64,000 bases of DNA, taken from the IMG/VR virus record IMGVR_UViG_3300045988_087402, one strand, 5' to 3'. The stretch comes from a virus. Below are positions 15,749-64,000 of this stretch, piece by piece (position 1 is the stretch's first letter; every line of letters begins with the position of its first letter). The translations under genes and the position numbers were made by a program. The notes below the pieces were generated by a model, which made no database searches, had not been told where the DNA came from, and saw only the letters and a program-made list of their open reading frames with translations.

Positions 15749-15784
15749 AAAGATATATAAATTGATTGTAAAAAGAGGGATTAA

Positions 15785-15820
15785 CGAATTTCGGAATACC
15801 TCTCGCCCTTGTGGCCATTA
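15785..15820 (+). repeat. GC-rich element copy A (cgaatttcggaatacctctcgcccttgtggccatta), forward
   Basis: One of six copies of a ~35-bp GC-rich repeat. Solo copy in an intergenic gap, ~65 nt upstream of the ATG at 15885. Confidence 0.85.
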
Positions 15821-15884
15821 AACTGTATTTCAAACTATATAACATACTGTATATCCAATTATATTTAATATTATATTTAATACT

Positions 15885-31700: not shown

Positions 31701-33245
31701 ATAAAAGGAGATAATAATTCTAAAGTATTTAAGGGAACTTATACATCTCCTATTTTGGAGTGGGGTAAAGAAAAAGGTATATATAGTGGTAAAACTACTT
31801 TTGATTCTATACAAGATTTTTATCTTGATACAAAAGCATTAGTTACAAATATAATACCTATTAGAGATAATGTTACAAATGAAGTTGTAACTGATTATAA
31901 TCTTTTTAATGATTTACCGAGAATTTATGTAAAGATTGATAATCCTAATGCAGAAATTGAACAAACTAAACCTATAGAAACTATAAAAGAAGAAGAATTA
32001 AGTAAGAGTGTAAATATTATTGAAAATATTGCTTCTGCTAATGTATATTCTGAAGATAATTTTATTGATAAATTGAATAATGAATATGGTTTAACAAAAG
32101 ATACTTTTATAAATATAGGATTTATTAAAAGAAATACTACAGATGAAGTATTTAATATAATTAAAGATTTTATTGTAGAAACTGTAGATTCTGGTAAACC
32201 ATTTCCTTTAATTATAGTACATAATGTAGAAGATTATATTCGTATATTAAGAAGTCAAGGTTATATTGATGCATCTGATGATGAATTAACTAAAAATTAT
32301 AATATGATGGGAGCTTCTTATAGCGGTTATACATCAACTCCTTTTATATTAGTTAATCCAAAAATATTTAATACTACTAAACGAAATATTGGTAGTGGTA
32401 TATTTCATGAAATTATTCATCATAGAGTTGAAAAAGATACGGAAAATGATGTTATAACTGATGATGTAAAAGAGGCTTTAAATGATATAGTTAAAGATTT
32501 AGTAGAACGTAAAGAAGAAGTATTACGATATGATATAGAAGATTCTATTAAAAATAGTATATCAAAATCTTTAAAAGTAGCTTGTTATAATTCGGATGGA
32601 ACTATAAATGAAGATGTTGCATATCACGAACTCTTAGCTTATACATTATCTAATCCAAATTTAGCTGGTTATTTAAATAATATATATTATAAAGAAGAAA
32701 CTAATAGACCGAGTGAATCTATTTGGAAAAGAATTATTGATAATCTTCTTAAATTATTTGGTATAAAAGTTAATAATAATAGTGTACTTCAACAAATACA
32801 AAATGCTTTTGATGAAGGTTTTATGTTTATTGTTAATAGTGTAGAAGTTGAAAATAATGAAAATGCTACAAGCAAACAAACTTCGGAACGCCCTCCCGCC
32901 CTTGTGGCCAATAAACAAGCGTCAATAGATGACATTGATGTTACAACTCTATCGGATGAAGAATTTATGAATAATGGCGATGAATTGTTTTTACGAATAG
33001 ATTTCGCAATTTCTGATGAAACTACGAATGAAATTTCTGATGAAACTACGAATGAAGCTATAGAGCCAAAAGATGACACTTCTATATTGGCCACAAGGGC
33101 GGGAGGGCGTTCCGCTGTTCTTCCGACTAATTCTATAAATTCTTCTGACAATCGAAATAAATTATTATCTTTAAATATTGATACTAATATTATTGATTCT
33201 TTTAAGGATTCTTTTACTGATAGTTCTAATTTAAAAATATGTTAA
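25716..33245 (+). CDS. giant virion cargo/ejection protein with HExxH metallopeptidase-like motif
   Basis: 2509 aa. Long K/E-rich coiled-coil region. HEIIHH at nt 32406-32423. The C-terminus carries an in-frame inverted-repeat element (32884-33114). Confidence 0.5.
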   Translation: MGNKIGTPVSLNPVTVEDKPSTVIGTPVKISNPTGGQSFMQGFMSTSPRNFDISSYQKMMNNVDTNLPLNILNEERARYQSTGHLIGNSLIQLGGTIIGDIISGVGALFNFNKVGIEFIKDIVDTNYQPDWTTIMNKGVSGAIQDFGKSISEGSREIAPIYLTERAQRGGLAGGMGDKTWWAANFPTIGSAATSMIPIMGQMRALNYIGKSLSKVGNVSKIGRGINTLGRTITNNKVQATIGTLYGAHLDIMQEIVYDYDNQFQYAKNLGYSDEEAREFASIYASTAYKDAWAYGILFNAIELNSILKGTNRFSKTISEVDKTINKHIPDISRQGTKFTGISEEVVDLSKKTIFRATLGKSYDFFKTSISEGLEEMRTDIALKEGELEAKKYLDIYDPLNDMTFAKRLYSQVSDARNWDSFLWGMAGGAVMYAGKGILNKIRMPDSYKDYNKKLYEGIMNSLQDTINTIATFDGDLSIRTSLEEDPAITILAPLFNTLGAANAIVYGERLLDELGTMTSEELTAVYGSDKTELINTLREEFKIAKDIYVRNADITYNSKADDYIQNEMAGLEYLHNYYTRKFNEIETEIQRIKTLNDDLDIKRDNELKELDGRLYKLNSDKESLLNSIKFNEANSNAIDKFVNSKETSEKLNDLKREKESLEKEIKSIKQTIKSNNTRNDNIRRNLDRLNSLLLNSETDTEKEQYKTELKHNKNKLRDNSKNIDNLYIKEQALSGIETSIAYLNGEIESQLKRKEFNTKAIERAKSTIDMIDAQIDKYKESRGDIIKRYEEIRKDYDSIPRVKNITLEDLTKLRDNIFKQLSNYGNIQDHKEEFANNLKTAVESIIDIETKELERKEYKIEEDKKNTESEIKEEDEFNNRPTSIKTVLNEGEYITLTIDDLNRIRSFIIKGKKYDLNKIYNIRGKDVEIINIKDDNGIIKVTTPEGDILAVIFNMLSSRDNSGYSKTIYNAIDRFTKSNFENDFYDTLVDLDKALNNDKFKKAFTFKVSNIDIISIRGRAIEGIINNLTKYANDRINEDNQKLYDRVYNELNSIYAQSVYDGEILLIKDYLYDIFYINLPAKSAEINNQFNSEYLDKFIDNLAKYIERYISIDFTNDKFKFKYNTNINEFINTLEIYFDEFESLLANKFYTQYTLQDFSDLNNELANKFNSFKEQLLKDYNKQQEVRKTELDKIRAELDTEESANKDFLNAIIDFISFSKSTDSNIEDRENISKNDYRYYVTPDRLNAYITLANVISKWKVSNSFNPNRKLSYTDILSIIYNTPEGIEKIDDIYKSLWRALKAASDIDSIESLKDEIKENVPKENYKEFFNILDTIVNNIVPPIRSIESKYLDKFDNITSAYIKDFKKTHFPERIEYGTHEGVPLSNNIIFDSLKSAMDSKSNKIEHLIKIEDKTYSPTELINIYKNITNGTPIAAKYDIESNIVTLTVTINGNTVPIGSIGLSDHLKIGNLKAYKELKNSGGTLIYDSFLGTSDGLKSTLISLLQTVSKSPTTYDLIREYFKTYLNAKTNNTTTDSLTIDILKDIISKLDKIGTHKNAGGHSNIVNALIQLSNYNTEREDTDEINYEDLFTIIQPMFYGRLNIIDSLNNNYYDLKNSYEIFNSRVGERFNQLETLRKAIINNPDAPLIITYIGKPRINYSNDRRIKNNINDSIQKDIEVNGKPTVDIIARQLTNNRYIVSSLTRNEIVSDDAAKRTIYDPNRGFDFYVRIKSNGTDTGFSYVPIKLTTVNSDTAYSRVSKEFIEDAIRQIITDRFLTNLSTRQSKDNVIVSDLVKKEYNKKYLNLIDDISEAIIVNNGEKSKFPWFDTSTLYDNKKEGFVSKDIKFIINKDDEHSYAVSLRINYEHDIDVDSPSIIKNIKLTVYDSRENRIKGTPKDIFTQTELSKYGFAKRDSKINKSDVITYSKSDKSKTITFDVNNDNIENFIKSGLIDMLVGNMVRNVKTVLTNGSYTYTSKATGASFGKSYNEIDKNNIIKGDNNSKVFKGTYTSPILEWGKEKGIYSGKTTFDSIQDFYLDTKALVTNIIPIRDNVTNEVVTDYNLFNDLPRIYVKIDNPNAEIEQTKPIETIKEEELSKSVNIIENIASANVYSEDNFIDKLNNEYGLTKDTFINIGFIKRNTTDEVFNIIKDFIVETVDSGKPFPLIIVHNVEDYIRILRSQGYIDASDDELTKNYNMMGASYSGYTSTPFILVNPKIFNTTKRNIGSGIFHEIIHHRVEKDTENDVITDDVKEALNDIVKDLVERKEEVLRYDIEDSIKNSISKSLKVACYNSDGTINEDVAYHELLAYTLSNPNLAGYLNNIYYKEETNRPSESIWKRIIDNLLKLFGIKVNNNSVLQQIQNAFDEGFMFIVNSVEVENNENATSKQTSERPPALVANKQASIDDIDVTTLSDEEFMNNGDELFLRIDFAISDETTNEISDETTNEAIEPKDDTSILATRAGGRSAVLPTNSINSSDNRNKLLSLNIDTNIIDSFKDSFTDSSNLKIC
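32884..32912 (+). repeat. GC-rich element copy E (cggaacgccctcccgcccttgtggccaat), left arm of an intragenic inverted pair
   Basis: 29-nt perfect inverted repeat with 33086-33114. Variant of the element family (cgccctcccgccc instead of cacctctcgccc). Confidence 0.85.
33009..33056 (+). repeat. 24-bp tandem duplication (atttctgatgaaactacgaatgaa x2) inside the intragenic inverted pair
   Basis: Read directly. Encodes ISDETTNE x2 in the giant ORF. Confidence 0.9.
33086..33114 (+). repeat. GC-rich element copy F, right arm (reverse orientation)
   Basis: attggccacaagggcgggagggcgttccg is the exact reverse complement of copy E. Confidence 0.85.
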
Positions 33246-42200: not shown

Positions 42201-45200
42201 GTATTTTATGCTTTTGAAAGAATGATTCCTATAATGGAAAATCTTATGGATTCTATAAGACTTCTTTTAATGGAAGTTGAAAGTGTAAATACAGATACAA
42301 TTAGAAATGATTATGCAAAATGGCAAGATTATAAAGTAAAAGTAAATAGTCTTAGAATTTTAATTGATTATCTTAATAAGTTTAAAGATATTCAACCTAT
42401 AACTATAAACGATACTATTTATAACTCTGAATCTGAAGAGGATGTTGCATCATTTCATGAAGAATTTGATACAGCTAATAAAGCTATTGAACGATTATCT
42501 GAATTATATAATAAATCTATTAGTTTACAAAGTAGAGTATTAGATAAAGTTCAAGAAATTATAGTAGATTTAGTTATAACTCAAAGTCGTAATCCGAATT
42601 ATGCTACAGCTTTTTCTAAAGTATTAGAAGCTGCTCGAAAAAATGATTTTGATTCTTCTACTTTTGATATAGAAAATCTTAAAATAACAAGTGAAGAATA
42701 TAATGATATAGTAGCTAAAGTATTTGCTCTTAAAAATTCGGATATTACTTTTTGGCAAAGTAAATTAGATTCTCCTTTTGTAACAGGTGTAACACTTACT
42801 GACATAATAGGTAAACAATATACTACAATTAAGTACGAAAATAATAAAAGAATTAATAAATTATTAGATAAAGTAGAAGATGCTATAAAAGAATTAGAAA
42901 AAGCTGAAAACTTAAATCTTTCTACTTATGAAGCAAGAAATAAATATTTTCGTAAATTTGTTAATGATTATGGTACTTTTATAAATGATTATAATAAAGA
43001 TGCTGTAGATGAACAAGTTCAAGGATTAAAAGATTCTATACAAGATTTATATAATAGAAAATATTATGGTGCTACATATATTGATGAAAGACTTGTAGAT
43101 GATATTATAAAAGAAACTGATGATTATATTTTAGATTTTAATACAAATTCTGATGGAATATTAATCCCTCTAACAGATGAAGAAGTAGATTCTTTATTAA
43201 AAGAAATAGAAGGTAAGTCAGATGTTGTTATAAATAATTATCTAAAATATAATGGATACTATGAAATAAAAAGGATAACAAAAATAGGAGAAACTCCTGA
43301 AAAAGTATTTTATAAATTATCTTATAAAGATAGTGCGAAAAATGTTAAATATAGTGAATTGACAGAAGCTGAATTAAAGTTTTTAAATACTATTAAAACT
43401 ATTATTGGAAATGTTATTTTAGAATATAATCCGTCTTGGTTTATTTCTCCGGATGCTATAATAGATATATTTCCTTATTTAGCAAAACCGGATTCAAAAA
43501 ATTCACTTAAAAGATTTATAGGTGTTCCCGGAATTAAAAAAGATTCTACTTATGAAGGACTTGATAGAAAAAATAAATATATACTTAAAGCAAGTACCTT
43601 AAGTATACCTAATTTCAATCCTGTTTTTAATATTCCTAAAAGAAGAGTAGGAGAAGTTTATGATGATTATGCTGAAAGAGTAGCAAGAGAATTTAATGAA
43701 TGGTATAGAAAAAATCCGGATGCAATAGAGCCAAAAACTCAATTAAAATCTATTGCAGATATTAGAGATTATAATAGTTATGTTAGAAAGTTAAATCATA
43801 CAGAAGCTATTGATAAAAGAACTTATGATATAAAAGCTGTAATGGAATCTTTTATAAAAGAGCTTTATAATATCAAAATTGTTAATGATTTTATTATAGA
43901 TTGGGAACTCGGTAAATTTGCATTAGATAGTGCAGCTGGTGAAGCTAAAATAGATAATTTGTCAGCTATATTTGAATCTATGCGAAAACGAGTTTATAAT
44001 ACAAGCAAAGTTAATAATACAGTAGATGTTATAGCTAAAGGTATAATGCGATATTCATCTATTAATTATATGTGGTTTAACTGGAGTGCTGGATTAAAGA
44101 ACTTAGCAAAAGGTATATCAGATATGATAATTGATACTTCATCTATTAATTATCTTACAAGTAAACAACTTATGCAAGGTCTTTTAGATATAATTAAAAT
44201 AACTCCTGAATGGATAGCTGAAATAAATAAAGAAAAAACTAAGAATCCAATTATAGCTTTAATTAAAGATTTTGAAGTTATATTTCAAGATACACGAGAT
44301 ATAAATGTTAGTATGACAGGAGAGAACTGGTTAACTAAAGTTTTAACTGCTGCTGATACAGCCGGTTATAGTCCTAACCAAATAGGTGAGTTTTTTATGC
44401 AATTTGGTATGCTATTAGGTATGTCTCGTTCTCACAGAGTTATAGCTGGTCAGATAATGTCATTTCAAGACTTTTATAATGATTCTAAAATAGAAGAATT
44501 ATCTAAAGTATTAACTGATGAACAAAAAGAAGAATTTGCTAAATTTGTAAAAGCTAAAAATGATTATATAATAAAATATGAAAATGAAAATAAAAAGAAA
44601 TATCTTTGGCAAAGTGATTATGCAGGTGAATTTATAAGGGCTAATATAGATAAATTTACAAAAGAACAACGAATTGAATTAAATAAATTAATTAAAGATA
44701 ATAGAAAAGTTCTAAAAGAAAGATTTGAAAGATTTCCAACATTGGATTCTCAATTAACTGTTGTAGATGGTAGATTAGCTTATAAAGAAGGAAGTCAATT
44801 AACAGATAAATCTGTAAATGATTTTAAAAATAGAGTTAAAGGCGTAAATCAAGCTCTACATGGTATTTACAATATAATTGATAAAAATGCTTTACAAGAA
44901 AGTGCATTTGGAGATTTATTCATGCAATTTAGAAAATGGATTCGTCCTAACTTTATAAGATATTGTGGACGTCGTTTTAATAAAACTATATTTAATGAAA
45001 TGTTAGGTACATGGGAAGTACCTGTATATAAACCGAGTTTTGATTGGGCTACTTATGGTTATAAAATGTTTAAACAAGATAGTGATATTGTTAAGCTAAA
45101 TATATTTAAAGACCCACGTGCATTCTTTAAAGGTTTATTTGAGATGTTTAATTATCAATATAAACTTCTTAGACATGCTAAATTATATTATAATTCTCTT

Positions 45201-45653
45201 ACTAAAGGTGAACAAGCAAGTATTATTAAATGGGCTAAACATTTATCTACTATAGCTATTATTGCAGTAGCTGCAATGATGTTAGGTAAATTAAAAGATG
45301 ATGATGAACCTTATTATTATACTGTAACAATGTATACACTTACAGCTTTATATAAAGAAGTTGTTGAACCTGTGCCTCTTTATGGTTGGTATAGTACAAT
45401 AAATCAAATGAAAGATAAACTCTTTGTTGGAGAAACTGTTATAACTAATGCTATGAATATTGTTAAATATGCTATGGCAGATGTATTTACAGATGATGAA
45501 TCTTTAGTTTATGACAGAGGTGTTTATAAAGGTCAGACAAAATTATCTGTTTCAGTTAAGAAGTTAATACCTATATTAACTCAAATAGAAAAGAGTAAGA
45601 ATCTTAAAGCTACAATGAATTGGTATAAATGGTATAATCCTTTTAATTTATAA
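33249..45653 (+). CDS. giant protein containing a crAss-type virion RNA polymerase module (DPBB catalytic motif DFDID)
   Basis: 4134 aa. ...TRTGWDFDIDTIY... at nt 37683-37706 matches the DxDxD metal-binding loop of the two-barrel RNAP (phi14:2 gp66-like). Size consistent with fused cargo proteins in some crAss-like lineages. Confidence 0.5.
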   Translation: MNYCNIIPTIGESNTPSHVFTSVLNLGNIISTEDILSMDIKAKSIRDLATLIFKYSQSANIINKGFPTYEDTGEVKLEYTLKYIIDNPNISNSSAKRIYQKMLDYLKVDIETLYNPTIKYNGTFSRTDLNYSNAVLVQIYNELIEEIPNLRTKSQITLKKLILNRLLEKMAPYRANDNTWEQFVNDYFEDVLKVDSIIWNEFITYLSTEYGIKYYNVQKDLTLSDIEGTFTTDGVEEIWDASSQDKINRKNTIAAIVKNKLAKILNDVNHGDSTVNKLYIPLPMDINSLWNRLINLHIYDKTRGDIVASLERVILQFNDTEKFTDKSNIIGFQKILDEFHKADEGIVDSQNFVNAYISGVALAVIPVNAIALDVDFVASIMTQNRASFAFNVYYDRFISVIQNNLKFGLYDPFNEASERATVITDNGILNIDKTLDSITNAINVIGLDISHRALLSYINSQSDKQGALQEVSNTLNYILKEIDTLKGNRDINYESSTDNRGALYRLANIASLDFDSIGKLSYLDVRGELNYSPQYENLLTSLFRGIAVRGKVREDYLNYRFKDYLNDPTLKFDNLLWYDDATGIGIFEHTKRVDGEGYKLNDSFVDRLAKGEEFIISKFDGIRISEDYSSRGYKYKSIQSTTYKFTEILANLMGQYIFLTSDSPRSYMISVRHIDIDDLYVNEVINIKSKIFTALSKIVDNNLRIFELYGSRVFNIDLNTDEGKDLATSIHNVKYWNGKTIFDKDGIPTGRAFKFLDLTYNDGNGSVNIIKYIANENGVSESDVYKELVKSVVNGVISKYDVSSYIPAFVTKYIQYAENSAESDFGDIAELVSRVSIKLGDTRLSLIEDSRNDAIDELYNDYIEDYKNRHKQEPSFKQKEVLYERSKREVYDTNTEIGKEVYKKAILKIILNNAVYGTSFDGLVYGKLSEYKSTIDYNKRGTQIVKTGLNSIDTGKPIKILVVEDMEFASNIIDKMFVDSTDVTELAIKKSYEKPATINDSMSIITDVRFEDLLKSTGRWDEYKKIVADLRDETEKFNPFLYDKLIEQLKLFGVARRRRGDFLIKDTAVYDDSGNILSDIFADEVDTVQIKDSTIVLFKSTTRGTAMGDVYDYMIDNDIQQISPKSAVKVSGITPIKIHDDKGRFVAPIVDSRSLLNMKSSDFVIQQDVKPDIIDAEVTVPSRLFKNILGTLSASHYTVDGKSYTPYEFAKEFNTIVSSTIQEDAISVAYELGAIDETGNIRTDNVGNIQLDTRKLTKYFQDVVQDDNSSINIKKALELDSVGQPKMPLSFPVTYRKFERILASKFTKDVIYRKLPGFHAPLRADIFTASNSLISREQYLDKDSYDKAIEDLYERGIITYSRDFIDRCKAEGRSLELRAEYGYDENGELIYKAEVIANPWLKEFFDTIPIIRRVDMGDGVYKEFLSVDIDAIPIEARTMFGGRIPSEGLMSLVVFEIVGFLNTGATQAIFPQSLITRTGWDFDIDTIYAYAKHINFNGESYTIPKYDSKMISEINENLSKYYALKDILKESLEIIKVTKSDTDTSLNSPAFKILTKYFIKLYSSDSNTDVSLDSIIPTLDSILATISNKESIEYKNILRIKTYVQESIPSIVSRVKVNFTNLINTAREYTEAIEYLKYIKQRDLTQEERIDLNPGIDNNYVQNKRRMFNELLLSIERDIKTTNKIFNKIKTLINSIDITSKDSDNIISINDYYTVKDFFEPFIKGSIKNDSGKVINIFSIFDNIEEKINRQYTGLKESKGYDFEDISESVTISRQARDNRIIDMVISVLSNKNHRIDIDKPNSFDNISAVSARDNALWGKSNNGLNPHNLADKISLNISSMSSTILKGYSINTDGNIAILGNLHAKLNNPVRRIISIDSLPNNVTKEVLDSVLGSDNWSYTEDGRYVIVEDVWVGNNASNTFTDLSGERINMQLTEVTAAILDVLKSELMFNLNLDTIGVFRLLSQGCVTELYNGKPNRFSYASAFIMQPVIVELVNFKSGAIITNPNFSILDACNTLIIKYTDILNSKYEQKIPYYYYKYKLHTTEELVRFIKNRNNESLSYYLGQLDVLYLFREYETISNDIIDLSFVLKTDVPVNDFNTADERESKLADSYINRDKYFSILRDAYTKSLSYIDSISETEEYWDNYKVLFTDFKSLSTGDFKIKYPNISYKDIEFITLPNYYEALNDFPNLITWQDRKNKLELLNISYKPVGNVTVNGQDIISVVFTGLNENYKFNGIIKPNYKDSLYGIIQVREQYGHWLFANSFNKVFAQRSLAMRKAVRTFLQQNGKSYNRKANNYVTGKVLEYYIQSYGDETVPIMSNIPAKQIKTILGIISDEERAKHNKYISELQNNLGDVITNDKFSKWVSLTLEEQINLILNDKSLKSYINKADFRFSNIFNHLQIVRDSIRRYGYSVIRIITDDSNKLSIDDVSSGILTMYQSDIPYIAHTIRNLIAYTYITEGFTYGANISKFIPIEILTSDLVNESYQKRITQIGVIDPTIGISDYGQALRTAETKLLNGETFNIEESLDYISRQNPSINATIPSYREQHRINNSTIYQATFGLLVNSEGYNVGKMRVTDANGIERNIIFETKERVIASTRSNAKYLTERLDGNVTIYKRSDSFLYNTTDNSKEVYYYYPVSRLLPNEFSEYSIIDKYNVSDRILIQDENGTISTIDVDTFVKRYSTLKDFLITLNKLESEYKNKSNKDAPANFENNSDEGVIINVPYDYVEEVSYEPEEISEDVPIESKRKSPLYSLGITFEDTVTEKSNKSLIETVKDEVSKNDNLIYIGHESNIVSRIYDTNGKFIHVDFTKNPYDEANRISKLLKEGDYLIVGDRFEDAGITTETGSIWTKLFIDKLYQNNGNINSINTILNDGFGFAVSQSYVDVNRRNVTYSEPKQLFSKTINIKKPSNIGIETRTKKNSIIALDYYQSLDKLKKFLERNNIPNTAAILDAYSNINKEDYDGSLENDINDANQNAVFYAFERMIPIMENLMDSIRLLLMEVESVNTDTIRNDYAKWQDYKVKVNSLRILIDYLNKFKDIQPITINDTIYNSESEEDVASFHEEFDTANKAIERLSELYNKSISLQSRVLDKVQEIIVDLVITQSRNPNYATAFSKVLEAARKNDFDSSTFDIENLKITSEEYNDIVAKVFALKNSDITFWQSKLDSPFVTGVTLTDIIGKQYTTIKYENNKRINKLLDKVEDAIKELEKAENLNLSTYEARNKYFRKFVNDYGTFINDYNKDAVDEQVQGLKDSIQDLYNRKYYGATYIDERLVDDIIKETDDYILDFNTNSDGILIPLTDEEVDSLLKEIEGKSDVVINNYLKYNGYYEIKRITKIGETPEKVFYKLSYKDSAKNVKYSELTEAELKFLNTIKTIIGNVILEYNPSWFISPDAIIDIFPYLAKPDSKNSLKRFIGVPGIKKDSTYEGLDRKNKYILKASTLSIPNFNPVFNIPKRRVGEVYDDYAERVAREFNEWYRKNPDAIEPKTQLKSIADIRDYNSYVRKLNHTEAIDKRTYDIKAVMESFIKELYNIKIVNDFIIDWELGKFALDSAAGEAKIDNLSAIFESMRKRVYNTSKVNNTVDVIAKGIMRYSSINYMWFNWSAGLKNLAKGISDMIIDTSSINYLTSKQLMQGLLDIIKITPEWIAEINKEKTKNPIIALIKDFEVIFQDTRDINVSMTGENWLTKVLTAADTAGYSPNQIGEFFMQFGMLLGMSRSHRVIAGQIMSFQDFYNDSKIEELSKVLTDEQKEEFAKFVKAKNDYIIKYENENKKKYLWQSDYAGEFIRANIDKFTKEQRIELNKLIKDNRKVLKERFERFPTLDSQLTVVDGRLAYKEGSQLTDKSVNDFKNRVKGVNQALHGIYNIIDKNALQESAFGDLFMQFRKWIRPNFIRYCGRRFNKTIFNEMLGTWEVPVYKPSFDWATYGYKMFKQDSDIVKLNIFKDPRAFFKGLFEMFNYQYKLLRHAKLYYNSLTKGEQASIIKWAKHLSTIAIIAVAAMMLGKLKDDDEPYYYTVTMYTLTALYKEVVEPVPLYGWYSTINQMKDKLFVGETVITNAMNIVKYAMADVFTDDESLVYDRGVYKGQTKLSVSVKKLIPILTQIEKSKNLKATMNWYKWYNPFNL

Positions 45654-45716
45654 AATTCTACTAATGATATAAATAATATTATACTTATAGATGCACCAAG
45701 TGCAAAAAAGGGGAAT

Positions 45717-45746
45717 AAAGGAGTTAGTACATTTGCTAACTCCTTT
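45717..45746 (+). terminator. stem-loop aaaggagttag / ctaactccttt (11-bp perfect stem, 8-nt loop) then attattat
   Basis: Read directly, ~64 nt after the stop of the 4134-aa ORF. Confidence 0.55.
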
Positions 45747-45798
45747 ATTATTATAAAAGCCATTTTACGGCCGACTTTAATAATGATTTTAAGCTATT

Positions 45799-45833
45799 AA
45801 ATTTCGATTATTTTTCAATGGACATACATTTGT
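45799..45833 (+). promoter_or_regulatory. second copy of aaatttcgattatttttc + TAcaTTTG (-7-like box)
   Basis: 18/18 identity with 2384-2401. The TAnnTTTG box (tacatttg) lies ~20 nt downstream. Points into the inter-module region. Confidence 0.3.
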
Positions 45834-45874
45834 TCAGCCGAATAAAAATAATAGAAATTTACAATGTTTATGGC

Positions 45875-46207
45875 TCAAATAGAGGCATTATAAAAAGGTA
45901 TGTATACACGCTCTTTTATCAAGTAATAAAGATTTCCAAAAGTAAAAGAACTATGAATATTTTTCTCACTAAGTGTAACATTAAAAGTCTTTGCTACATC
46001 ACATTTAAATTTATAAATATCATCATAATTAATAAAACCTTGTAATACAACTTGTATAGGTTCTTCAAAATCAATTATAATATCATTAACATTTGCATCT
46101 TTTATATAATCTTTTAATATATGTTTTACAACAATTTCAAATCGTTTTCGATTTAAAGTTTCATTTGTAGTATTTATATCAGTATTTAAATCAGCATTTA
46201 ATGTCAT
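45875..46207 (-). CDS. small hypothetical protein
   Basis: 110-aa ORF with non-degenerate composition, first gene of the minus block after the convergence hairpin. Weak. Confidence 0.25.
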   Translation of the reverse strand: MTLNADLNTDINTTNETLNRKRFEIVVKHILKDYIKDANVNDIIIDFEEPIQVVLQGFINYDDIYKFKCDVAKTFNVTLSEKNIHSSFTFGNLYYLIKERVYIPFYNASI

Positions 46208-46242
46208 ATTAATTTCGTTAGAATTTATAATAATTATAAAAT

Positions 46243-46277
46243 AAATTTCGGAACACCTCTCGCCCTTGTGGCCATTA
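46243..46277 (+). repeat. GC-rich element copy B (aaatttcggaacacctctcgcccttgtggccatta), forward
   Basis: Left arm of a convergent inverted pair with copy C. Confidence 0.85.
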
Positions 46278-46334
46278 TACTGTGTATAATACTATGTAAC
46301 ACTATAAGTTTAATAGTTACATCCGAATTAAATA

Positions 46335-46390
46335 CAGTATTAAATACAATATTAAATTCAGTATTAAATACAATATTAAATTCAGTTGTT
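46335..46390 (+). repeat. 24-bp tandem repeat cagtattaaatacaatattaaatt x2 (+ partial) between copies B and C
   Basis: Read directly. Confidence 0.9.
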
Positions 46391-46429
46391 ACTTTATTAT
46401 ATTAAGTGCTAACTATAGAGACATTTGTT

Positions 46430-46466
46430 TAATGGCCACAAGGGCGAGAGGGTGTTCCGAAATTCG
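46430..46466 (+). repeat. GC-rich element copy C (reverse orientation: taatggccacaagggcgagagggtgttccgaaattcg)
   Basis: Reverse complement matches copy B except for one extra c. Confidence 0.85.
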
Positions 46467-46554
46467 TATTGAATTTATTATCTTTTCTTTCGTTACTATT
46501 TATAATAATAGGGATAACTATTTCACAATAATTATCCCTATCTTTATTTAAATA

Positions 46555-47271
46555 TTATTTTCCGGTACTTCCGAATCCACCATTTCCTCTATCAGTTTTA
46601 GTTAATTCTTCAATGCTTTTAACTTTTTTAAATTCGCATTGTTCTACTTTGGCAAATACACCTTGTGCTAACCTTTCATTTGGAAATATTATATAACTAT
46701 TAGGAGAAGGATTATTTATAATAATTCCTATATTACCACGATAATCACTATCAATAGTACCAAAATGGGCTATCATATTAGTTTTAGCTCCAATACCACT
46801 ACGAGGTCTTATCTGAATTTCATATCCATCAGGAATTTGAACAAAGCATCCAGTATTAATTATATTATGTGAAAATGGTAATATTATATTAGCTACTTCT
46901 ATATTGTTGTCATCCATATAATCATATAGAGTACCATACTTTATACCACCATTTTTTTCAGCTGTTTTGTTAATTTCAGATAATTTATTATTAATAGCTT
47001 TTTGTATAGATTTTATATAATTAATACTACTTATAATTGAATAAGAAATATCATTATCTATAAAAGGTATTAATTCTTCTATAAATTCTTTAGCAATATA
47101 TTCTTCAGTACCGTCAAATGCATCTATCTTTTTTATATCATTAGGAGTAAAAACTTGACAATTATTTGATGAACTAATAGTAGTAAACAAATCAAAACCA
47201 GAAGCACCCGAAGTTTTATATTCGGGTACTTTTCCAGTTTCAGAATAGATTTTTATAATCTGTTTTTCCAT
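46555..47271 (-). CDS. dut: dUTPase with ~80-aa insertion between motifs I and II
   Basis: Motif I SGASGFDL, motif II RPRSGIG, motif III GTIDSDYRGNIGI, motif IV ERLAQG, motif V RGNGGFGSTGK. 238 aa against a ~150-aa core. Confidence 0.8.
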   Translation of the reverse strand: MEKQIIKIYSETGKVPEYKTSGASGFDLFTTISSSNNCQVFTPNDIKKIDAFDGTEEYIAKEFIEELIPFIDNDISYSIISSINYIKSIQKAINNKLSEINKTAEKNGGIKYGTLYDYMDDNNIEVANIILPFSHNIINTGCFVQIPDGYEIQIRPRSGIGAKTNMIAHFGTIDSDYRGNIGIIINNPSPNSYIIFPNERLAQGVFAKVEQCEFKKVKSIEELTKTDRGNGGFGSTGK

Positions 47272-47296
47272 AGTTTTTAAAATTTTAATTGTTATT

Positions 47297-47596
47297 TTAA
47301 TCTACGCTATTTGGTATAGCATTTGTATTATTTATAAATTCAGATAATCGTATTACATGTTTATAAGGAATTTCTATATTTATTTCTGTATTAGAAATTA
47401 CAAAATAGAATTTAGGATTCCTTGTAAATCTAAGATTAGGTTCAATACTCGAAGGACTATAATTAATACAAGTATCTACATTTTTAAGTATTTGATGAAT
47501 AAGTGTAATATCTCCACTCAATTCTCTAACTTTACAATTATCCAAATCATAACAATCAATATATCCGTCACTACATATATTAACTCTATTTATCAT
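47297..47596 (-). CDS. hypothetical protein
   Basis: 99-aa ORF. Confidence 0.3.
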   Translation of the reverse strand: MINRVNICSDGYIDCYDLDNCKVRELSGDITLIHQILKNVDTCINYSPSSIEPNLRFTRNPKFYFVISNTEINIEIPYKHVIRLSEFINNTNAIPNSVD

Positions 47597-47599
47597 ACT

Positions 47600-48724
47600 T
47601 TATGCAGCATATTTTCCGATTATTAAATTATAAGATTTCTGATTTAGTTTAGCACCTACACCATCCATAATAGAATTAAATTTATCTTCATTAGATTTAT
47701 AATTAATTCCATTGTTTATATATGAAGTAATTCCATTATATAACCAAAGAGCTGTTCCATAATTATAATCTTGACCAGCTCCTTTTTCAATATAAGTGAT
47801 AGCTTCTTTCATTTTATTTAAAGTTTTTGTAGCTATCAATTCATCACCATTAGTTATATTAAAGAAAGAACCTTTTGATTTAATATAATTTACTTGTTCT
47901 TCATTAAGAAATAAATCTTGTATAAATTCAATAGCATCTTTCTCTTTTACTTCTATTTTAGAAAGAGGTTCTAATGTTTCTACAAGTGTATTTTTATACA
48001 TAATAGCATTTTTCATAAGATTTGAACCTTCGTTTAAACGTTTATTTACATTTCTTGTATGTTTAAACATCATCTTATTTGTACAACCATTCAATGCCAT
48101 ATTTAAAGTATTATTACATACAACACGTATATCAGTAAAACAAGCTGTTATACTTCCACTTCCATCGTGTGTTGTTGTAAATAGAATATAATTATTTATT
48201 AAATCTTTAGCTATAATAAAATCCGGAAGTTTAGCTGTTACAAATATTCTTTCACCTTTTCCTAAAATTCCAGCTGTTTCTATAATTATATCTTTAGGAT
48301 GAATAATATCTTGATTACTTAAAACATTAAATATAAAATCTATAGCTACATAATTTTGAACAGGTTCATATCTATTACCTACTACACCTAATACATCGAG
48401 AGTATCTGTACGATATGTAGCATAATTTGTTTTAATAAGTTCTCCCTTTTTCTTTATACTATAAGGAATTGTTTCGTTTCCACTTCTATAATAACCTTTA
48501 TATTCACCAGTTATTAAATCTTTTTCACAAGTAACTGCACCATTTGGAATAAAACTTGCATACAAAGGAGCTAATTCTACTTTATAATCCATATTAGCAA
48601 GTTCTAATATTTCATTAGGAGTTTTAGCTTCTTCTACAATAGTTCCTAAACCATGCCAAGGAAGTTCTTTTAAACTATAAAAACTATAAGTTCCTCTAAT
48701 TTCGTTATAATTTATATTATCCAT
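47600..48724 (-). CDS. hypothetical protein (replication module)
   Basis: 374-aa ORF, no recognised motif. Confidence 0.35.
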   Translation of the reverse strand: MDNINYNEIRGTYSFYSLKELPWHGLGTIVEEAKTPNEILELANMDYKVELAPLYASFIPNGAVTCEKDLITGEYKGYYRSGNETIPYSIKKKGELIKTNYATYRTDTLDVLGVVGNRYEPVQNYVAIDFIFNVLSNQDIIHPKDIIIETAGILGKGERIFVTAKLPDFIIAKDLINNYILFTTTHDGSGSITACFTDIRVVCNNTLNMALNGCTNKMMFKHTRNVNKRLNEGSNLMKNAIMYKNTLVETLEPLSKIEVKEKDAIEFIQDLFLNEEQVNYIKSKGSFFNITNGDELIATKTLNKMKEAITYIEKGAGQDYNYGTALWLYNGITSYINNGINYKSNEDKFNSIMDGVGAKLNQKSYNLIIGKYAA

Positions 48725-48733
48725 AATTGCAAT

Positions 48734-49462
48734 TTATTTAAATATAGCAGTTGTTGATGTATTTTCAGTAATATTTAAATCAGCTATAATCTCTTCATAT
48801 TCCGAAAGATTTTCATAAACAGCTTCTACATCATCTTCTTCTCGTTTATTAACAATTATATTTTCATATTCTTCTCTACTTTTTATAAGTTCTTTTGCAT
48901 AAGTTTTATTTAAAGACTTTTTAATGTCTTTAATTTCATATTCATAATTATTACATTTACTAATAAAATCTCTATAATCTACGATTGGAATTTTTACAGT
49001 AAGTTCTACATTAATTAGATTATCTATTATATCAACTTGATTATAACTATAATATTCATTTTCTACTTTATCAATAACAAATTCCAATTTTCTATCATCA
49101 TAATCTATACTTTTGCTATCTTTTGTATAAACTGTAAAGTCAGGATATTTAAGTTTATAATTTGTATTAGATTTTATACCATATATTTTAAGAGTTTCTA
49201 CGATATTATTTTTAATAAGTCGTATAGTATTTTCTCTACTTGCTATTTTATTTTTTAATCTTTCTTGTTCATCTTTTACATATTCTTTTTCATATTTATA
49301 TCTATCTATAATATATTTATAATTTCTAAGTTTATCTTCAAGTTCACTTTCATTAATAGATAATTTTTCTGCAATTTCGGGAGTTATTTCACCTTCATTA
49401 TCTTCAATAATAGAAAGAATATCTTCGTATTCTTTTGCTATATCAAATATATTTTTACCCAT
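48734..49462 (-). CDS. hypothetical acidic coiled-coil protein
   Basis: 242 aa, E/K/Y-rich. Confidence 0.3.
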   Translation of the reverse strand: MGKNIFDIAKEYEDILSIIEDNEGEITPEIAEKLSINESELEDKLRNYKYIIDRYKYEKEYVKDEQERLKNKIASRENTIRLIKNNIVETLKIYGIKSNTNYKLKYPDFTVYTKDSKSIDYDDRKLEFVIDKVENEYYSYNQVDIIDNLINVELTVKIPIVDYRDFISKCNNYEYEIKDIKKSLNKTYAKELIKSREEYENIIVNKREEDDVEAVYENLSEYEEIIADLNITENTSTTAIFK

Positions 49463-49465
49463 GTT

Positions 49466-49783
49466 TTAATCTTTATTATTAAATTTAATAGTTGTTTGTT
49501 CCATAAATTTACATTTTCGTTTAACTTCATTATAAGAAGTAATACGACATCTTATACATAATTCATCAATAGTTTTTATAAGATATGCAACTTCATTTGA
49601 TGAATAAGTTGGAATCTCTTTTACAACAATATATTTACTATCTAAAGTCTCAATATATTGATATAATTGAGATTTATTATCTATATCATGTAGTACAATA
49701 TCTTTTTTAATATCATCTTCTAATTCAATATAATCTTTAAATGAAATATAAGTTTCAACTATTTTTAATTCATTATCTTTCAT
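49466..49783 (-). CDS. hypothetical protein
   Basis: 105-aa ORF. Confidence 0.3.
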   Translation of the reverse strand: MKDNELKIVETYISFKDYIELEDDIKKDIVLHDIDNKSQLYQYIETLDSKYIVVKEIPTYSSNEVAYLIKTIDELCIRCRITSYNEVKRKCKFMEQTTIKFNNKD

Positions 49784-50471
49784 AATTATTATTATTTATA
49801 TAATCAACAATATTATATGCTACTTCTGTAGCATATTCATATAAGTTTTGAAAAGTACTATTATTTTCAATAACATAATTCCATTCTACACAATCATCTA
49901 AATCTGTTTCAGTACAATGTTTTCTAAATGATTCATTATTATCTTTTATATTTCTATTAATTCTAATAAATATAACATCTTTTCTATTTTTAACTCTATT
50001 ATATTCATCTTTAAGTCTTAAATCTGTAACTATAGCAATATTTTTATTAAATATATCTTTATATACTCCTACCCTACCTAATAAAGAATCTATAAAGAAA
50101 TAAGGATTATCTTTTCTTACAATATCCCCAAAATAAATAAGAAGTTCTCTTATTGTAAGATTTTTACCATTAATTTTATAACAACTTTTTGAACGTTTAA
50201 ATAAATCTATATTTAAATATTTAGAATCAATACCTATTAAACCTGCTACAGAATCTTTTAATGGTTCTGCTAAAGCAGTAAAATATATACTATTAAATAT
50301 AGATTTTACATCATCTCCGTTATCAATTCTTTCAACAATATTCATAAAATTATTGATATTCGGATGATAATTAGCTTTATTAGGATTTGTGATATAATGT
50401 AATACATGTCCTAACATGATACCAAATGTATCTTTTCCACTACCAGCTTTACCATTAATGAATATTATCAT
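49773..50471 (-). CDS. deoxynucleoside monophosphate kinase-like P-loop protein
   Basis: N-terminal MIIFINGKAGSGKDTFG resembles T4 gp1 dNMP kinase (..IFLSGVKRSGKDT..). Confidence 0.5.
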   Translation of the reverse strand: MIIFINGKAGSGKDTFGIMLGHVLHYITNPNKANYHPNINNFMNIVERIDNGDDVKSIFNSIYFTALAEPLKDSVAGLIGIDSKYLNIDLFKRSKSCYKINGKNLTIRELLIYFGDIVRKDNPYFFIDSLLGRVGVYKDIFNKNIAIVTDLRLKDEYNRVKNRKDVIFIRINRNIKDNNESFRKHCTETDLDDCVEWNYVIENNSTFQNLYEYATEVAYNIVDYINNNNYER

Positions 50472-50688
50472 TTTCTATATTTATTTCTTGTCTTTCAAAT
50501 TGTCCAGATAAAACACGTTTTGCAGCTTCTAATTTAATAGCTTTTGAAGTATTAGAATCAATATTTTTAGAACATATTCTAAATGCTTCTCTTGCTACTA
50601 AATCATTTCCTCGTGTCTTACCATATTTATTATTTATTATATCAAGTAATTCATTAAGACTTTTATTTTCTATTTCATCTCTTGTCAT
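50455..50688 (-). CDS. hypothetical protein
   Basis: 77-aa ORF. Confidence 0.25.
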   Translation of the reverse strand: MTRDEIENKSLNELLDIINNKYGKTRGNDLVAREAFRICSKNIDSNTSKAIKLEAAKRVLSGQFERQEINIENDNIH

Positions 50689-50694
50689 ATTAAT

Positions 50695-50952
50695 TTAATT
50701 CTTATTTTCATCTAAATGTTTATGATAATTATATAAAGTTTCAAATGTATCATTATATAGACTTGCATCAAAATCTTTATATAAAACTTTTATATGTTTA
50801 TCTAATATATCTGTTATAGAACTACAAACTTTAATTTCTTCCAAAGTTACTTTAGAATTATCTTTAAGGAACAATTCTATATTTTTGTCACTAACTTTAA
50901 TATCTTTTAAAGCCTGTCGAATAATCTCTTTAAATTCAGCTTTAGAAATCAT
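50695..50952 (-). CDS. hypothetical protein
   Basis: 85-aa ORF. Confidence 0.25.
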   Translation of the reverse strand: MISKAEFKEIIRQALKDIKVSDKNIELFLKDNSKVTLEEIKVCSSITDILDKHIKVLYKDFDASLYNDTFETLYNYHKHLDENKN

Positions 50953-52135
50953 AATATTTAGAATAATTTATTTTTAATAATGTATATACTTTATCGGATA
51001 ATCTTTTAATTTGTGGATGAGCACATTTTGCACTCCGTTGAGGAATAAAACCTTTATTTTCTTTTATAATAATTCCATTAATATTATTTTCGATAGATTC
51101 TCCAACCCACATATCCATAGTTCCTGTCATATATAATTCAGTCTTTAAACCGAGTGGTAATATATCTCTCGCAAATTGTTGATTTATACCAATTTCAATA
51201 GAATCTTTATAATATTGTTCACATGTAACATAACCATCTGTTTCTATTTCATTAAATGTAATTATTGAATTAGAAGTTTCTTTACTTCTTACATAATCAC
51301 TTATATTATAAGATGGTATAAATTTAATTGTATCACCAGATTTGCTATAATTTATATATCTTGTAGATTCTTGCATAGGAGCTATTTCACTATGACGTAT
51401 AATTTCATTTGCTATAGCCCTATTTGTAATAAATTTAAAAGTTGAAACATATATTTCTGGAGCATTCATTAATATAATATTTGGATTAACACGTTTTAAT
51501 GCATCATTTATATAAGATTTAGTATAACTTTCCGGAATATAATCTATCATAGAATAATCTATATTAAATATACTTTTTAATTCCGGTGTACAATCCCACA
51601 TTTTATTAATAATAATATTCATTAAATGGTAATCATTAATGAAACTTTTTCTTACATCATTTCTTTTGCTATTAATTAACATATCTAATAAACTTCTATA
51701 TGATACAGCTATATATCTTGCGTCATTAGATACTTGTATATATCTATTATAATAAATAAGTTTATAAATAATATCACTTGAAGATAAAAAGAAAGCATTT
51801 ACAAGACCACCTATATCAAAATATACAAATTCATGAGCTAATATAGAAGTGTGACCATCTTTTATTCGATTTTTTACAAAATTAATATAACTATTTTCTG
51901 TAATGTTATGTTCTTTCTTAGTACATACTTTACCTATAAGTTCTATTTTTTTAAGACCTTCTTTGATAATTAATTCAACAGAATCATTAACTATTTCCAT
52001 ATCTTTAAAAGAATTAATTTTATTATTAATTACGAATGATAATGAGATTTGATGTGTATACAAGTCGTGTTCGTAGAATGCCCGTAAAGGCCATAAATAA
52101 GCCCTATAATCGAATATAATTTTTAAGACGAACAA
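50942..52135 (-). CDS. thyX: ThyX-like flavin-dependent thymidylate synthase (extended)
   Basis: RHSEIAPMQESTRY fits the ThyX signature RHRxxSxxxxSxRY with two substitutions. 397 aa is longer than the canonical ~230 aa. Confidence 0.4.
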   Translation of the reverse strand: MFVLKIIFDYRAYLWPLRAFYEHDLYTHQISLSFVINNKINSFKDMEIVNDSVELIIKEGLKKIELIGKVCTKKEHNITENSYINFVKNRIKDGHTSILAHEFVYFDIGGLVNAFFLSSSDIIYKLIYYNRYIQVSNDARYIAVSYRSLLDMLINSKRNDVRKSFINDYHLMNIIINKMWDCTPELKSIFNIDYSMIDYIPESYTKSYINDALKRVNPNIILMNAPEIYVSTFKFITNRAIANEIIRHSEIAPMQESTRYINYSKSGDTIKFIPSYNISDYVRSKETSNSIITFNEIETDGYVTCEQYYKDSIEIGINQQFARDILPLGLKTELYMTGTMDMWVGESIENNINGIIIKENKGFIPQRSAKCAHPQIKRLSDKVYTLLKINYSKYYDF

Positions 52136-52195
52136 ATGTTCATCCGTATAAAATAATTGATTATAAGGCTTTAAAATCGGTATTAATTATCGGAC

Positions 52196-52516
52196 TTATT
52201 TAAGTCGTTTAAGTCTATATAGGACTTGTAATGTAGCTTCATCAATAGTATCTACAATAGCAATTTGAACATTTTCTACTAAGACATTTCTTATATTCTT
52301 AGTTGAAATTCTAAATTTATTAAAATAATCTATTATATTAGTAGGTTTATCTGTTTTAGGAACAGTAATATTTATATCTCCATATAAGGCTATTGAAGTT
52401 TCAGCTAATGAATCAACTGAAGCATTCATTTGTTCTATAAATTGGTCAAGAGCTATATGTTGAGCATAAGAAGCTGTACCTGTAACATCCCAATGATATA
52501 ACTTTGCACCTCCCAT
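52196..52516 (-). CDS. hypothetical protein
   Basis: 106-aa ORF. Confidence 0.3.
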   Translation of the reverse strand: MGGAKLYHWDVTGTASYAQHIALDQFIEQMNASVDSLAETSIALYGDINITVPKTDKPTNIIDYFNKFRISTKNIRNVLVENVQIAIVDTIDEATLQVLYRLKRLK

Positions 52517-55493: not shown

Positions 55494-55497
55494 AGTT

Positions 55498-55533
55498 TAA
55501 TGGCCACAAGGGCGAGAGGTGTTCCGAAATTCG
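55498..55533 (+). repeat. GC-rich element copy D (reverse on plus strand; forward relative to the minus-strand primase gene)
   Basis: taatggccacaagggcgagaggtgttccgaaattcg. Abuts the primase start codon. Same orientation relative to the downstream gene as copy A. Confidence 0.85.
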
Positions 55534-55542
55534 TATATATGA

Positions 55543-63943: not shown

Positions 63944-64000
63944 CAGTTGTAAAGACAGTTGTAAAGACAGTTGTAAAGACAGTTGTAAAGACAGTTGTAA
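63944..64000 (+). repeat. 12-bp tandem repeat cagttgtaaaga, >=4.75 copies, runs off the window edge
   Basis: Read directly: cagttgtaaaga x4 + cagttgtaa. Confidence 0.9.

Follow-up and report, generated by a model that had tools for sequence, protein, structure and literature searches.

Temperate mycobacteriophages of cluster A, such as L5 and Bxb1, carry stoperators, which are 13-bp sites bound by the immunity repressor. Stoperators are generally known as many copies of one asymmetric site, found mostly in short intergenic gaps; they are oriented with transcription, flip between the genome arms, and have a group-specific sequence that co-varies with the reader. The promoters of the T7 group (T7, T3, SP6 and K11) likewise form sets of ~10-17 near-identical copies at conserved positions, some of them in upstream coding sequence, and their sequence varies from one related phage to the next, co-evolving with the polymerase. 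Here we describe a GC-rich box of comparable habit in a 64,000-nucleotide stretch of viral DNA, IMG/VR record IMGVR_UViG_3300045988_087402 (hereafter the window, by which we mean the whole stretch). Two oppositely oriented copies of this box, B and C, face each other between positions 46243 and 46466. We propose, with a probability of roughly 0.4, that they are copies of a lineage-specific cis-recognition box through which a phage-specific factor controls transcription at operon heads. The box resembles stoperators and T7-group promoters in copy number, placement and group-specific sequence, but it is not a close match to either. Unlike a stoperator, it is ~45 nt long with a variable C/T-rich spacer, and it has copies inside coding sequence and in inverted pairs accompanied by arrays of repeats; the phage has no known repressor and is not known to have a temperate life cycle. 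Unlike T7 promoters, which are 23 bp long and strictly co-directional, three of its ten copies are antisense, and the only phage RNA polymerase known here is the two-barrel enzyme of the virion. The box is unusual among known multi-copy, co-evolving phage signals in its length, in its inverted-pair cassettes with arrays and in its overprinting on two proteins.

Judged by its sequence, the window comes from a crAss-like phage. Positions 44000-49000 match cr127_1 (NC_055886; Crevaviridae, Kahucivirus) at 95.5% identity, and identity to cr127_1 is ~99-100% across most of the window. Few viruses of the human gut are as abundant as crAss-like phages, yet phi14:2 is the only one of these phages whose transcription programme is known. 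In phi14:2, early, middle and late classes correspond to the replication, gene-expression and capsid modules, and no promoter motif was found for its virion polymerase (bioRxiv 10.1101/2020.03.07.982082). The beta-crassvirinae, another crAss-like group, have a recurring multi-part promoter motif, found upstream of the genes for the virion RNA polymerase (vRNAP), the portal and other proteins (bioRxiv 10.1101/2020.03.07.982082). The box family would offer a concrete handle on where transcripts start and stop, on the reader protein and on the co-evolution of a cis-element with its reader. Our literature search returned no earlier description of these repeats.

The box family and the B/C pair

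We mapped six copies of the box in the window (A to F) and ten in the whole cr127_1 record, against 0 expected by chance. The consensus is AAACGAATTTCGGAAC, a C/T-rich spacer of 7-10 nt and GCCCTTGTGGCCATTAAAC, ~45 nt in all, with a spacer length that differs among copies and strains. The 30-mer of the arm, with up to three mismatches allowed, has 3 matches in the window against 0.00 expected from shuffles, and the 13-mer core CGCCCTTGTGGCC has 6 against 0.06. Seven of the ten cr127_1 copies are intergenic, while ~6% of the window is non-coding by its list of open reading frames (ORFs). The five single copies, along with one copy from each pair, all share the orientation of the genes around them (7/10 in cr127_1). 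The distance from these seven to the next gene start downstream is 34-340 nt, except that one of them stands upstream of a 1.4-kb non-coding stretch. The genes that they precede are the first of the capsid module, the first after the tail ring protein gene (gene-expression module), the vRNAP gene, gp50, the primase gene and gp71, which lies ahead of the DNA polymerase gene.

Single copy A (15784..15823, plus strand) is co-directional and sits where the capsid and gene-expression modules meet, with the tail ring protein gene (15056-15748) before it and ORF 15885-16748 after it. Single copy D (55495..55534, minus strand) is also co-directional; a terminator-like hairpin precedes it by 12 nt, and the ATG of the primase gene (55466) follows 34 nt downstream. 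Copies D and C both stand directly after a terminator-like hairpin and before the next ATG, and the same order of hairpin and box is seen in L195, a relative that is introduced below. The additional cr127_1 copies are at 1751(+), at 11350(-) inside the uracil-DNA glycosylase (UDG) gene (copy H), at 11893(+) just after UDG (copy G), and at 82336(-), upstream of the first gene of a long structural block.

Within the B/C pair, copy B (ATAAATTTCGGAACACCTCTCGCCCTTGTGGCCATTATAC; 46241..46280, plus strand) is antisense to the minus-strand genes around it and stands 36 nt ahead of the start codon of gp50. Copy C (46427..46467, minus strand) has the direction of the replication-module genes, and it is the member of the pair that is kept in all three box-bearing species. 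It stands just downstream of the terminator-like hairpin (46502..46547, minus strand; from the repeat search) that follows the dUTPase gene (46555-47271, minus strand), the upstream neighbour of the pair. An earlier note on the window, made from the letters alone, had described a GC-rich inverted pair with internal tandem repeats, and our analysis bears this out. Arm B (46243-46277, plus strand) reads AAATTTCGGAACACCTCTCGCCCTTGTGGCCATTA, arm C (46430-46466, minus strand) reads AAATTTCGGAACACCTCTCGCCCTTGTGGCCATTA plus one additional C, and the repeat search found the two arms to be complementary at 35/36 positions with a 1-nt bulge, an arrangement absent from shuffles. The spacer between the arms (46278-46429) is 152 nt long and AT-rich. 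Read on the minus strand, the AT-rich interior between the two boxes (46281..46426) presents GTAACAAC and then five 12-nt units of AATAYTGWATTT. Tandem Repeats Finder (TRF) reports this array at 46327-46386 with a period of 12 and 5.0 copies, equal to a period of 24 and 2.5 copies, and its score of 113 is essentially level with the window maximum.

Similar arrays accompany other copies. Downstream of most boxes, at a distance of 20-60 nt, come a GTTACAAC-like word and then tandem 12-mers of the family AMWAYWGTMTTT, and the window's three best-scoring tandem repeats in TRF all adjoin boxes. Copy A is followed by ATTATATTTAAT x2.8, a related 12-nt repeat at 15858-15890, and the cr127_1 copy at 82336 by TACAATAGTATT x3. 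The array TTACAACTGTCT x4.8 (63944..64000, minus strand; 100% matches) follows copy G in cr127_1; G itself would fall just beyond the window end, after UDG. A degenerate 12-mer pattern matched 12 times in the window against 2.7 expected, and seven of these 12 matches lie in two box arrays. The number of units in the B/C interior array differs between strains. Compared with L195, the B/C interior includes a 60-nt block that is ~75-80% conserved, with TAATACTGTATTT.ATTCG, and is thus better conserved than the boxes themselves.

A second inverted unit, E-interior-F (32878..33122, plus strand), lies in frame inside the 2509-aa ORF 25716-33245 (gp48). Copy E is sense (32878-32918, plus strand) and copy F antisense (33082-33122, minus strand), and a perfect 24-nt x2 repeat occupies 33008-33056. 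Copies E and F lie ~330 nt and ~130 nt, respectively, upstream of the vRNAP gene start (33249). The 2509-aa protein reads through both copies (...SERPPALVAN...LATRAGGRS...), and a minus-strand ORF (32789-33151) leaves the E/F region open on both strands. The C-to-B and E-to-F units are homologous through their interiors and in the same polarity (z = 3.05; 1/300 shuffles).

The note had also put the B/C pair exactly at the meeting point of the two gene modules. The pair does lie at the end of the replication module, but gp50 intervenes between it and the junction. The 4134-aa gene that carries vRNAP homology ends at 45653, and the actual convergence gap is 45653-45875, between that end and the end of gp50. 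The gp50 gene (45875..46207, minus strand), which lies downstream of the C-to-B cassette, is a 110-aa ORF that is annotated in cr127_1 and matches no Pfam family. Its L195 counterpart is a 93-aa ORF in the same place, with weak similarity (32% identity over 71 aa, E = 0.008). With gp50 separating the pair from the end of the 4134-aa gene, B/C is part of the minus-strand replication module, upstream of the module's last gene. A 14-bp hairpin with a T-run (45714..45749) inside the convergence gap is likely to be the junction terminator. A scan for the terminator consensus found sites at 45714-45749 and 45758-45772 and none at B/C.

Folded as RNA, the B/C region forms one long hairpin of -96.5 kcal/mol (z = -11.8; folding of a single strand), and as a single strand of DNA it reaches -54.7 kcal/mol (z = -11.5). 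The very stable stem that had been expected is therefore present, and on the minus strand a U-rich tract lies 3' of it. These features raise the possibility that the facing copies (C/B, E/F and H/G) act at the RNA level, as a GC-rich duplex of ~35 bp that would be processed by RNase III, affect transcript stability or terminate transcription in both directions. T7-type phages are well known to use RNase III sites in their intergenic regions, and E and F have pair-specific variants in common (CGCCCTCC, CCAAT) that preserve their complementarity. However, five of the ten copies are single, and a box by itself forms no secondary structure (z about 0). Some strains carry an arm B with three substitutions (the CGGAAACTCTCTC allele, which is also found at site 1751) and an uncompensated arm C, and arm changes are uncompensated in related species as well. 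Moreover, E/F lies inside the gp48 coding sequence, where cleavage or termination would destroy the mRNA, and the hairpin at B/C would have a 152-nt loop next to separate classical terminators. Rfam gave no match at gathering score in the window, with sub-threshold chance matches only around the element and in L197, another of the relatives. Taken with the evidence on both sides, an RNA-level role for the long hairpin is unlikely. The intrinsic bidirectional terminator suggested in the note fares poorly on much the same grounds, namely the 152-nt loop, the unfolded single arms, the flanking classical terminators and the homologous unit inside an ORF. Extrusion of a DNA cruciform would be expected to be very unfavourable with a 152-nt spacer. 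Since arm changes go uncompensated in strains and relatives, each box appears to be read singly, and the hairpin would be a by-product of facing copies.

Inverted arms that flank segments of 150-170 nt could also mark an inverton, in which a recombinase flips the segment between the arms. The E/F region, open on both strands, would then be an intragenic inversion, and gut Bacteroidales are rich in invertases. Yet the strain assemblies at B/C (8) and E/F (6) show one flank-interior combination only, and no inversion was seen at the level of assemblies. No recombinase is annotated in cr127_1, and an inverton would leave the single copies unexplained. We regard this explanation as very improbable.

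The same sites in related phage species

Relatives were located via homologues of the primase, which is 64% identical in L195, 48% in L197 and 42-43% in L299 and L300. The replication modules of L195 and L197 are syntenic with that of the window. A contig of the L195 type is ENA ERZ26781227 NODE_79. In L195, a box of the form AATCCAATTACTGAC-(C/T-rich)-CCCCTATCCGCCAGC stands immediately upstream of the primase ATG, and an imperfect inverted pair lies between dUTPase and the gp50-like ORF. In L197, a box of the form ...CAAGTGGGCGTSCAACC...CCCACCGGG... is found upstream of the primase gene and at the module end. The intergenic copies of L195 have a common 5' module (AATCCAATT), which its UDG-embedded copy is without. 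The boxes of the window phage and L195 can be aligned in the same polarity (CGGAACACCTCTCGCCCTTGTGGCCA against CTGACTTTCTTCTCCCCTATCCGCCA) and are thus diverged homologues. Copies within a genome are 85-91% identical, whereas orthologous copies of the window phage and L195 are 51-60% identical. Paralogues that are more alike than orthologues indicate concerted evolution. At least five sites are conserved across species. The species also differ in sites, as G is present only in the window species and an additional site precedes Thy1 in the L197-type species, which has at least 11 box sites in total across its contigs.

The L197-type box (L213, L231 and L256) is ~90 nt long and ends in CACAAGTTACAAC, with the same GTTACAAC word that is found downstream of the window-phage boxes. 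Its GC hairpin varies, with a compensatory change between strains (GCTGGGC-GAA-GCCCAGC vs GCTGTGC-GGA-GCACAGC).

The UDG gene carries an antisense copy of the species' own box at the same codons in all three species. The peptides encoded by the box are MATRARGVPKS, MADRGEESQSL and GAGCTPTLRRT, and the three-way alignment of UDG proteins is gapless at this segment. When the UDG segment was used as a query in blastn-short, other boxes were the top matches (E = 1e-10 to 1e-4). Compared with the family-4 UDG TM0511, in which the corresponding loop immediately precedes motif A, the segment is 2 aa longer; by eye, it is ~4 aa longer than the UDGs of relatives without a detectable box system. Because the length of the loop is almost unchanged, the box appears to have been written over the native loop and not simply inserted. 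Eleven UDG codons dictated by a non-coding signal, at the same position in three species, make an unusually clean example of overprinting.

Upstream of the vRNAP gene, the in-frame pair within the tail of gp48 also recurs in the one relative where it could be checked, the L197-type contig L276. The gp48 homologue of L276 ends with an in-frame sense box, and a diverged antisense box follows ~210 nt on. These boxes lie ~450 nt (sense) and ~135 nt (antisense) upstream of the giant gene and align with E and F. The partner arms in L195 and L276 are imperfect.

Sequence likeness to the box was also seen in the UDG of L300. Its loop (2992-3027) encodes a canonical ...SRGEGQG..., and the reverse complement, CTGACCCTCGCCCCTACTGG, resembles the boxes by eye. 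More speculatively, the box family may have been born from, or seeded by, the ancestral UDG 'R-G-E-G' codons; if so, sense copies in other mRNAs could pair with UDG mRNA. A likeness seen by eye in the UDG loop and primase-upstream region of L299 was dropped, as it was not among the best blastn-short matches.

Strain variation and wider searches bear on whether the box is, or was, mobile. When IMG/VR, metagenomes and 185,579 prokaryotic genomes were scanned with exact patterns, only this phage species was reached. The motif-bearing contigs are 92-100% identical to cr127_1 and come from the human gut wherever a source is named. With these patterns, no box copy was found outside the phage species in IMG/VR or in the JGI/ENA metagenomes. 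The bacterial and archaeal genomes contained no copies beyond chance matches in GC-rich genomes, and no AT-rich bacterial genome carried the motif. An IMG/VR scan for the L195 box returned nine single matches, which we take as chance. The first viral scan, with a 14-mer, was discarded because the query was too short and gave mostly chance matches in GC-rich contigs. Searches of the phage collection by tblastn with dUTPase and the vRNAP C-terminus recovered no intermediate relatives; a protein search with the vRNAP C-terminus returned nothing, and a related-locus search returned the same three contigs only. A protein search with the gp48 tail found same-species fragments and one chimeric contig of low coverage, L301 (ENA ERZ1307742 NODE_3485), in which a bacterial MreB-like gene is fused to the gp48 tail at ~1758. 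L301 is most likely an assembly chimera.

The architecture of the B/C unit recalls the Correia elements of Neisseria and the Rickettsia palindromic elements (RPEs), which are 100-250 nt long and have terminal inverted repeats of 26-35 nt. Miniature inverted-repeat transposable elements (MITEs) and RPEs can be co-transcribed and form hairpins, and RPEs occur in frame inside genes, as E/F does. The GC clusters of yeast mitochondria are similar in another way, being short GC-rich repeats in an AT-rich genome that are intergenic and occasionally within genes; they are associated with ori, processing sites and recombination. The boxes could descend from an old MITE-like or GC-cluster-like selfish repeat, a ~230-nt unit with solo arms that spread in an ancestor, in some cases in frame into coding loops that could tolerate it, and has since been maintained by vertical inheritance and gene conversion, with no function needed. 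Such an origin fits the 35-nt terminal inverted repeats and the homology of the whole C-to-B and E-to-F units. It also fits the lack of a detectable box system in distant relatives, hence multiplication in one lineage, and the turnover of sites between species (G and the pre-Thy1 site). Gene conversion is suggested by the CGGAAACTCTCTC allele, present both at 1751 and, in some strains, at B, and some copies seem to have decayed (82336, B' in L195 and F'' in L276).

Other results are difficult to reconcile with a selfish repeat. The flanks of B/C (ending in ...TTATAAAAT on one side and beginning with CGTATTGAA... on the other) form no direct repeat and hence no target-site duplication, and the E/F flanks likewise show none. 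The distinct strain sequences at B/C (8), E/F (6), A (7) and D (4) all carry the element, with no empty site. No transposase or recombinase is found in the cr127_1 annotation or among the Pfam calls for the relatives' replication modules, and the exact-pattern scans found no copies outside the phage species. MITEs and RPEs show presence/absence polymorphism, but the box does not, and its UDG copy overwrites a native loop at almost unchanged length. At least five sites have been kept across species despite the compact genome. Box orthologues are less alike than paralogues, whereas RPEs are generally more alike between species at a given site. Yeast GC clusters number in the hundreds, fall into several classes and are polymorphic among strains, whereas the box has ten copies of one class at fixed positions. 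We consider the selfish-repeat origin doubtful, although it is the chief rival to control of transcription. The suggestion that the pair is a mobile element at a permissive site fared poorly, given the lack of a target-site duplication, an empty site or an inversion and the orthology of sites across species. More generally, the element lacks defining features of an intrinsic terminator, an active MITE or an inverton. If it is a selfish repeat after all, it would be an unusual GC-cluster-like or MITE-like element in a lytic phage; to our knowledge, few comparable cases exist, the closest being the small mobile elements of mycobacteriophages.

Proposed transcription control and its alternatives

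Conserved positions, together with a lineage-specific sequence, homogeneity within each genome and tolerance of coding sequence, form the pattern of cis-elements that co-evolve with a private reader. At the heads of the capsid, gene-expression, vRNAP and replication units, boxes come between a terminator-like hairpin and the start of a gene, which favours a factor that acts on transcription. In its copies, its placement and its lineage-specific sequence, the box looks, as far as sequence can tell, like a family of phage-specific promoters or operators. The box family and its copy number, the positional orthology across species, the concerted turnover, the coding overprint and the association with arrays are observations; from these we infer a trans-acting factor, and transcription as the process that it controls.

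The reader could be a protein or the transcription machinery itself, recognising the box as a promoter-proximal control site or roadblock. Box and 12-mer array together would then make up a control region at the head of a transcription unit. On this view gp50, with which the replication module ends, would be controlled by the C-interior-B cassette, and the vRNAP gene by the homologous E-interior-F cassette. The antisense partner might be a promoter that fires in the convergent direction, might act as a roadblock or insulator in both directions, or might let proteins bridge the two copies. At B/C, a bound protein may form an insulator or roadblock that works both ways, which would be near in spirit to the bidirectional terminator of the earlier note. 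We tentatively entertain a further version, in which the box is a private 'address label' that is read by a phage factor, possibly vRNAP or a partner, and rewritten in step at ~10 sites. Such a label may be important enough to overwrite a UDG loop and the tail of the 2509-aa virion protein.

Several observations weigh against control of transcription by a phage-specific factor. Neither a convincing host-type -35/-10 nor a convincing Bacteroidetes -7 motif is found at a fixed distance from the boxes. Three of the ten copies (B, F and H) are antisense to the local genes, the orientation rule is weak (5/5 single copies, p ~0.06 two-sided), and about half of the intergenic sites in the L197-type species are antisense. 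The spacing of 7-10 nt between box halves is awkward for a rigid protein that binds double-stranded DNA. Homology of the C-to-B and E-to-F units is also expected from an ancient cassette that was duplicated or mobile. Unit homology, gain in one clade, site turnover, alleles common to different sites and decayed copies all fit a MITE-like repeat as well. L299 and L300 have no significant multi-copy box in the replication-module stretch examined. In one of the relatives with a 42-43% identical primase, the primase ATG is preceded only by a hairpin and 22 nt, indicating that the box is not indispensable for expression of the primase. On sequence evidence, the box system appears to be an innovation of one clade.

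We also considered known motifs and systems as explanations of the box. Sigma-70-like -35/-10 spacing from TTGTGG was not consistently placed, and of the eight intergenic matches to TAnnTTTG only one was properly upstream of a gene. Likeness to lambda boxA and the anti-Shine-Dalgarno-like C/U tract were set aside, as a site for a host factor should not be species-specific. For a solitary clustered regularly interspaced short palindromic repeat (CRISPR) or an anti-CRISPR RNA, the scan of bacterial genomes provided no array or matching repeat. Diversity-generating retroelements with their initiation-of-mutagenic-homing sites and integron attC sites were rejected, as no reverse transcriptase or integrase is annotated in cr127_1.

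The cumulative GC-skew maximum coincides with B/C, which invites comparison with replication termini. The IRI/IRII sites of Bacillus subtilis, read by the replication terminator protein (RTP), and the Ter sites of Escherichia coli, read by Tus, are inverted polar sites of ~30-47 bp that face each other at a skew switch, and Ter-type systems have ~10 sites in two opposed groups. By analogy, the boxes might be polar barriers to replication forks, permissive to forks that leave an origin located in the cr127_1 non-coding region (82.3 kb-1.7 kb), with B/C as the fork trap at the terminus. Eight of the ten cr127_1 boxes do point from the non-coding region toward B/C, and the orientation flips exactly at B/C, at the skew maximum. 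Gene direction, skew and box direction are nevertheless all confounded. The exceptions H (in UDG) and F (in gp48) would block forks in mid-arm, yet these wrongly oriented copies are conserved across species. In addition, no gene for a Tus-like or RTP-like reader is known in the phage, and orientations in the L197-type species are mixed. A role as fork barriers is therefore improbable.

Recombination offers a further explanation. T4-type PeSL cassettes are repeated intergenic cassettes of a lytic phage and possible recombination junctions, and a mosaic border likewise lies near copy C. The boxes could be recombination linkers, short common sequences at module borders that promote exchange between co-infecting relatives. 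In keeping with this idea, divergence between the window and cr127_1 is 0.37% over 1-46200, 7.0% over 46540-55000 and 0.8% thereafter, with the left breakpoint ~80 nt from arm C and the right one ~500 nt from box D. However, the breakpoints fall near boxes and not within them. One mosaic block was examined, and such closeness has a non-negligible probability, a few per cent, of arising by chance. Harmful inversions would also be expected from inverted copies, and none was seen in the strain assemblies. PeSLs themselves differ from the box in that they consist of a host sigma-70 early promoter and a small stem-loop, and they are found in hyperplastic regions and not inside conserved genes. We think it improbable that the boxes serve as linkers.

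Small repeats and other features of the window

The earlier note had pointed out a candidate promoter at 45799-45833, firing toward the pair. A sigma-70 scan of the plus strand found no promoter there, but the site coincides with a recurring 19-mer, TAAATTTCGATTATTTTTC. This 19-mer occurs at 2385-2403(+), 45798-45816(+) and 45843-45861(-), and the copy at 45798 points toward arm B. Both plus-strand copies are followed 3-8 nt later by TAnnTTTG (TACCTTTG at 2407 and TACATTTG at 45825), which we take to be the Bacteroidetes-type -7 promoter motif. The first bases of TAAATTTCGATTATTTTTC resemble the 5' end of the box (AATTTCGR: 13 matches vs 5.7 expected). After the portal gene, at 2328-2385, a GC hairpin (GCCGCTCTCCCAGCGGC) is followed by (AATGGCCTTTA) x2.7. 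The repeated unit includes TAATGGCC, the reverse complement of the box 3' end, and the repeat may be a box remnant.

Period-12 repeats also occur apart from boxes. The 12-mer AATATTGTATTT is present in two copies 38 nt apart (8414-8463), in the gap before ORF 8535-8975 and beside a terminator-like hairpin. As there is no GC box at this site, the 12-mer is able to occur alone. Tandem duplications with a period of 12 make up about one-third of the 94 TRF rows for the window, some of them inside coding regions, which hints at a genome-wide tendency to 12-nt slippage. Unrelated IMG/VR phages of ~40% GC (L041, L065, L089, L106 and L119) carry a terminator hairpin, CCGCCCTTGTGGCCAACAAGGGCGG followed by TTTT, that has 15 nt in common with the box core. 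This likeness is probably a coincidence.

The DNA polymerase gene (60006-63648, minus strand) is split into ORFs 62461-63648 and 60006-61130 by an insertion of ~1.3 kb. In cr127_1, a 622-nt gap without an annotated ORF is found at this position, and L195 has an intact ORF of 850 aa. Rfam gave no group I intron at gathering score for the insertion. Its ORF 61486-62175 resembles GIY-YIG homing endonucleases (Pfam E = 7.8e-9), and the insertion looks like an intron with a homing endonuclease.

Within the mosaic block at 46540-55000, part of the sequence at a second divergence peak (51000-52000) is unalignable to cr127_1. The first peak lies in the middle of the dUTPase gene, where identity to cr127_1 is 69-76% at the nucleotide level and 75% at the protein level, and it falls in an apparent insertion domain of this 238-aa protein.

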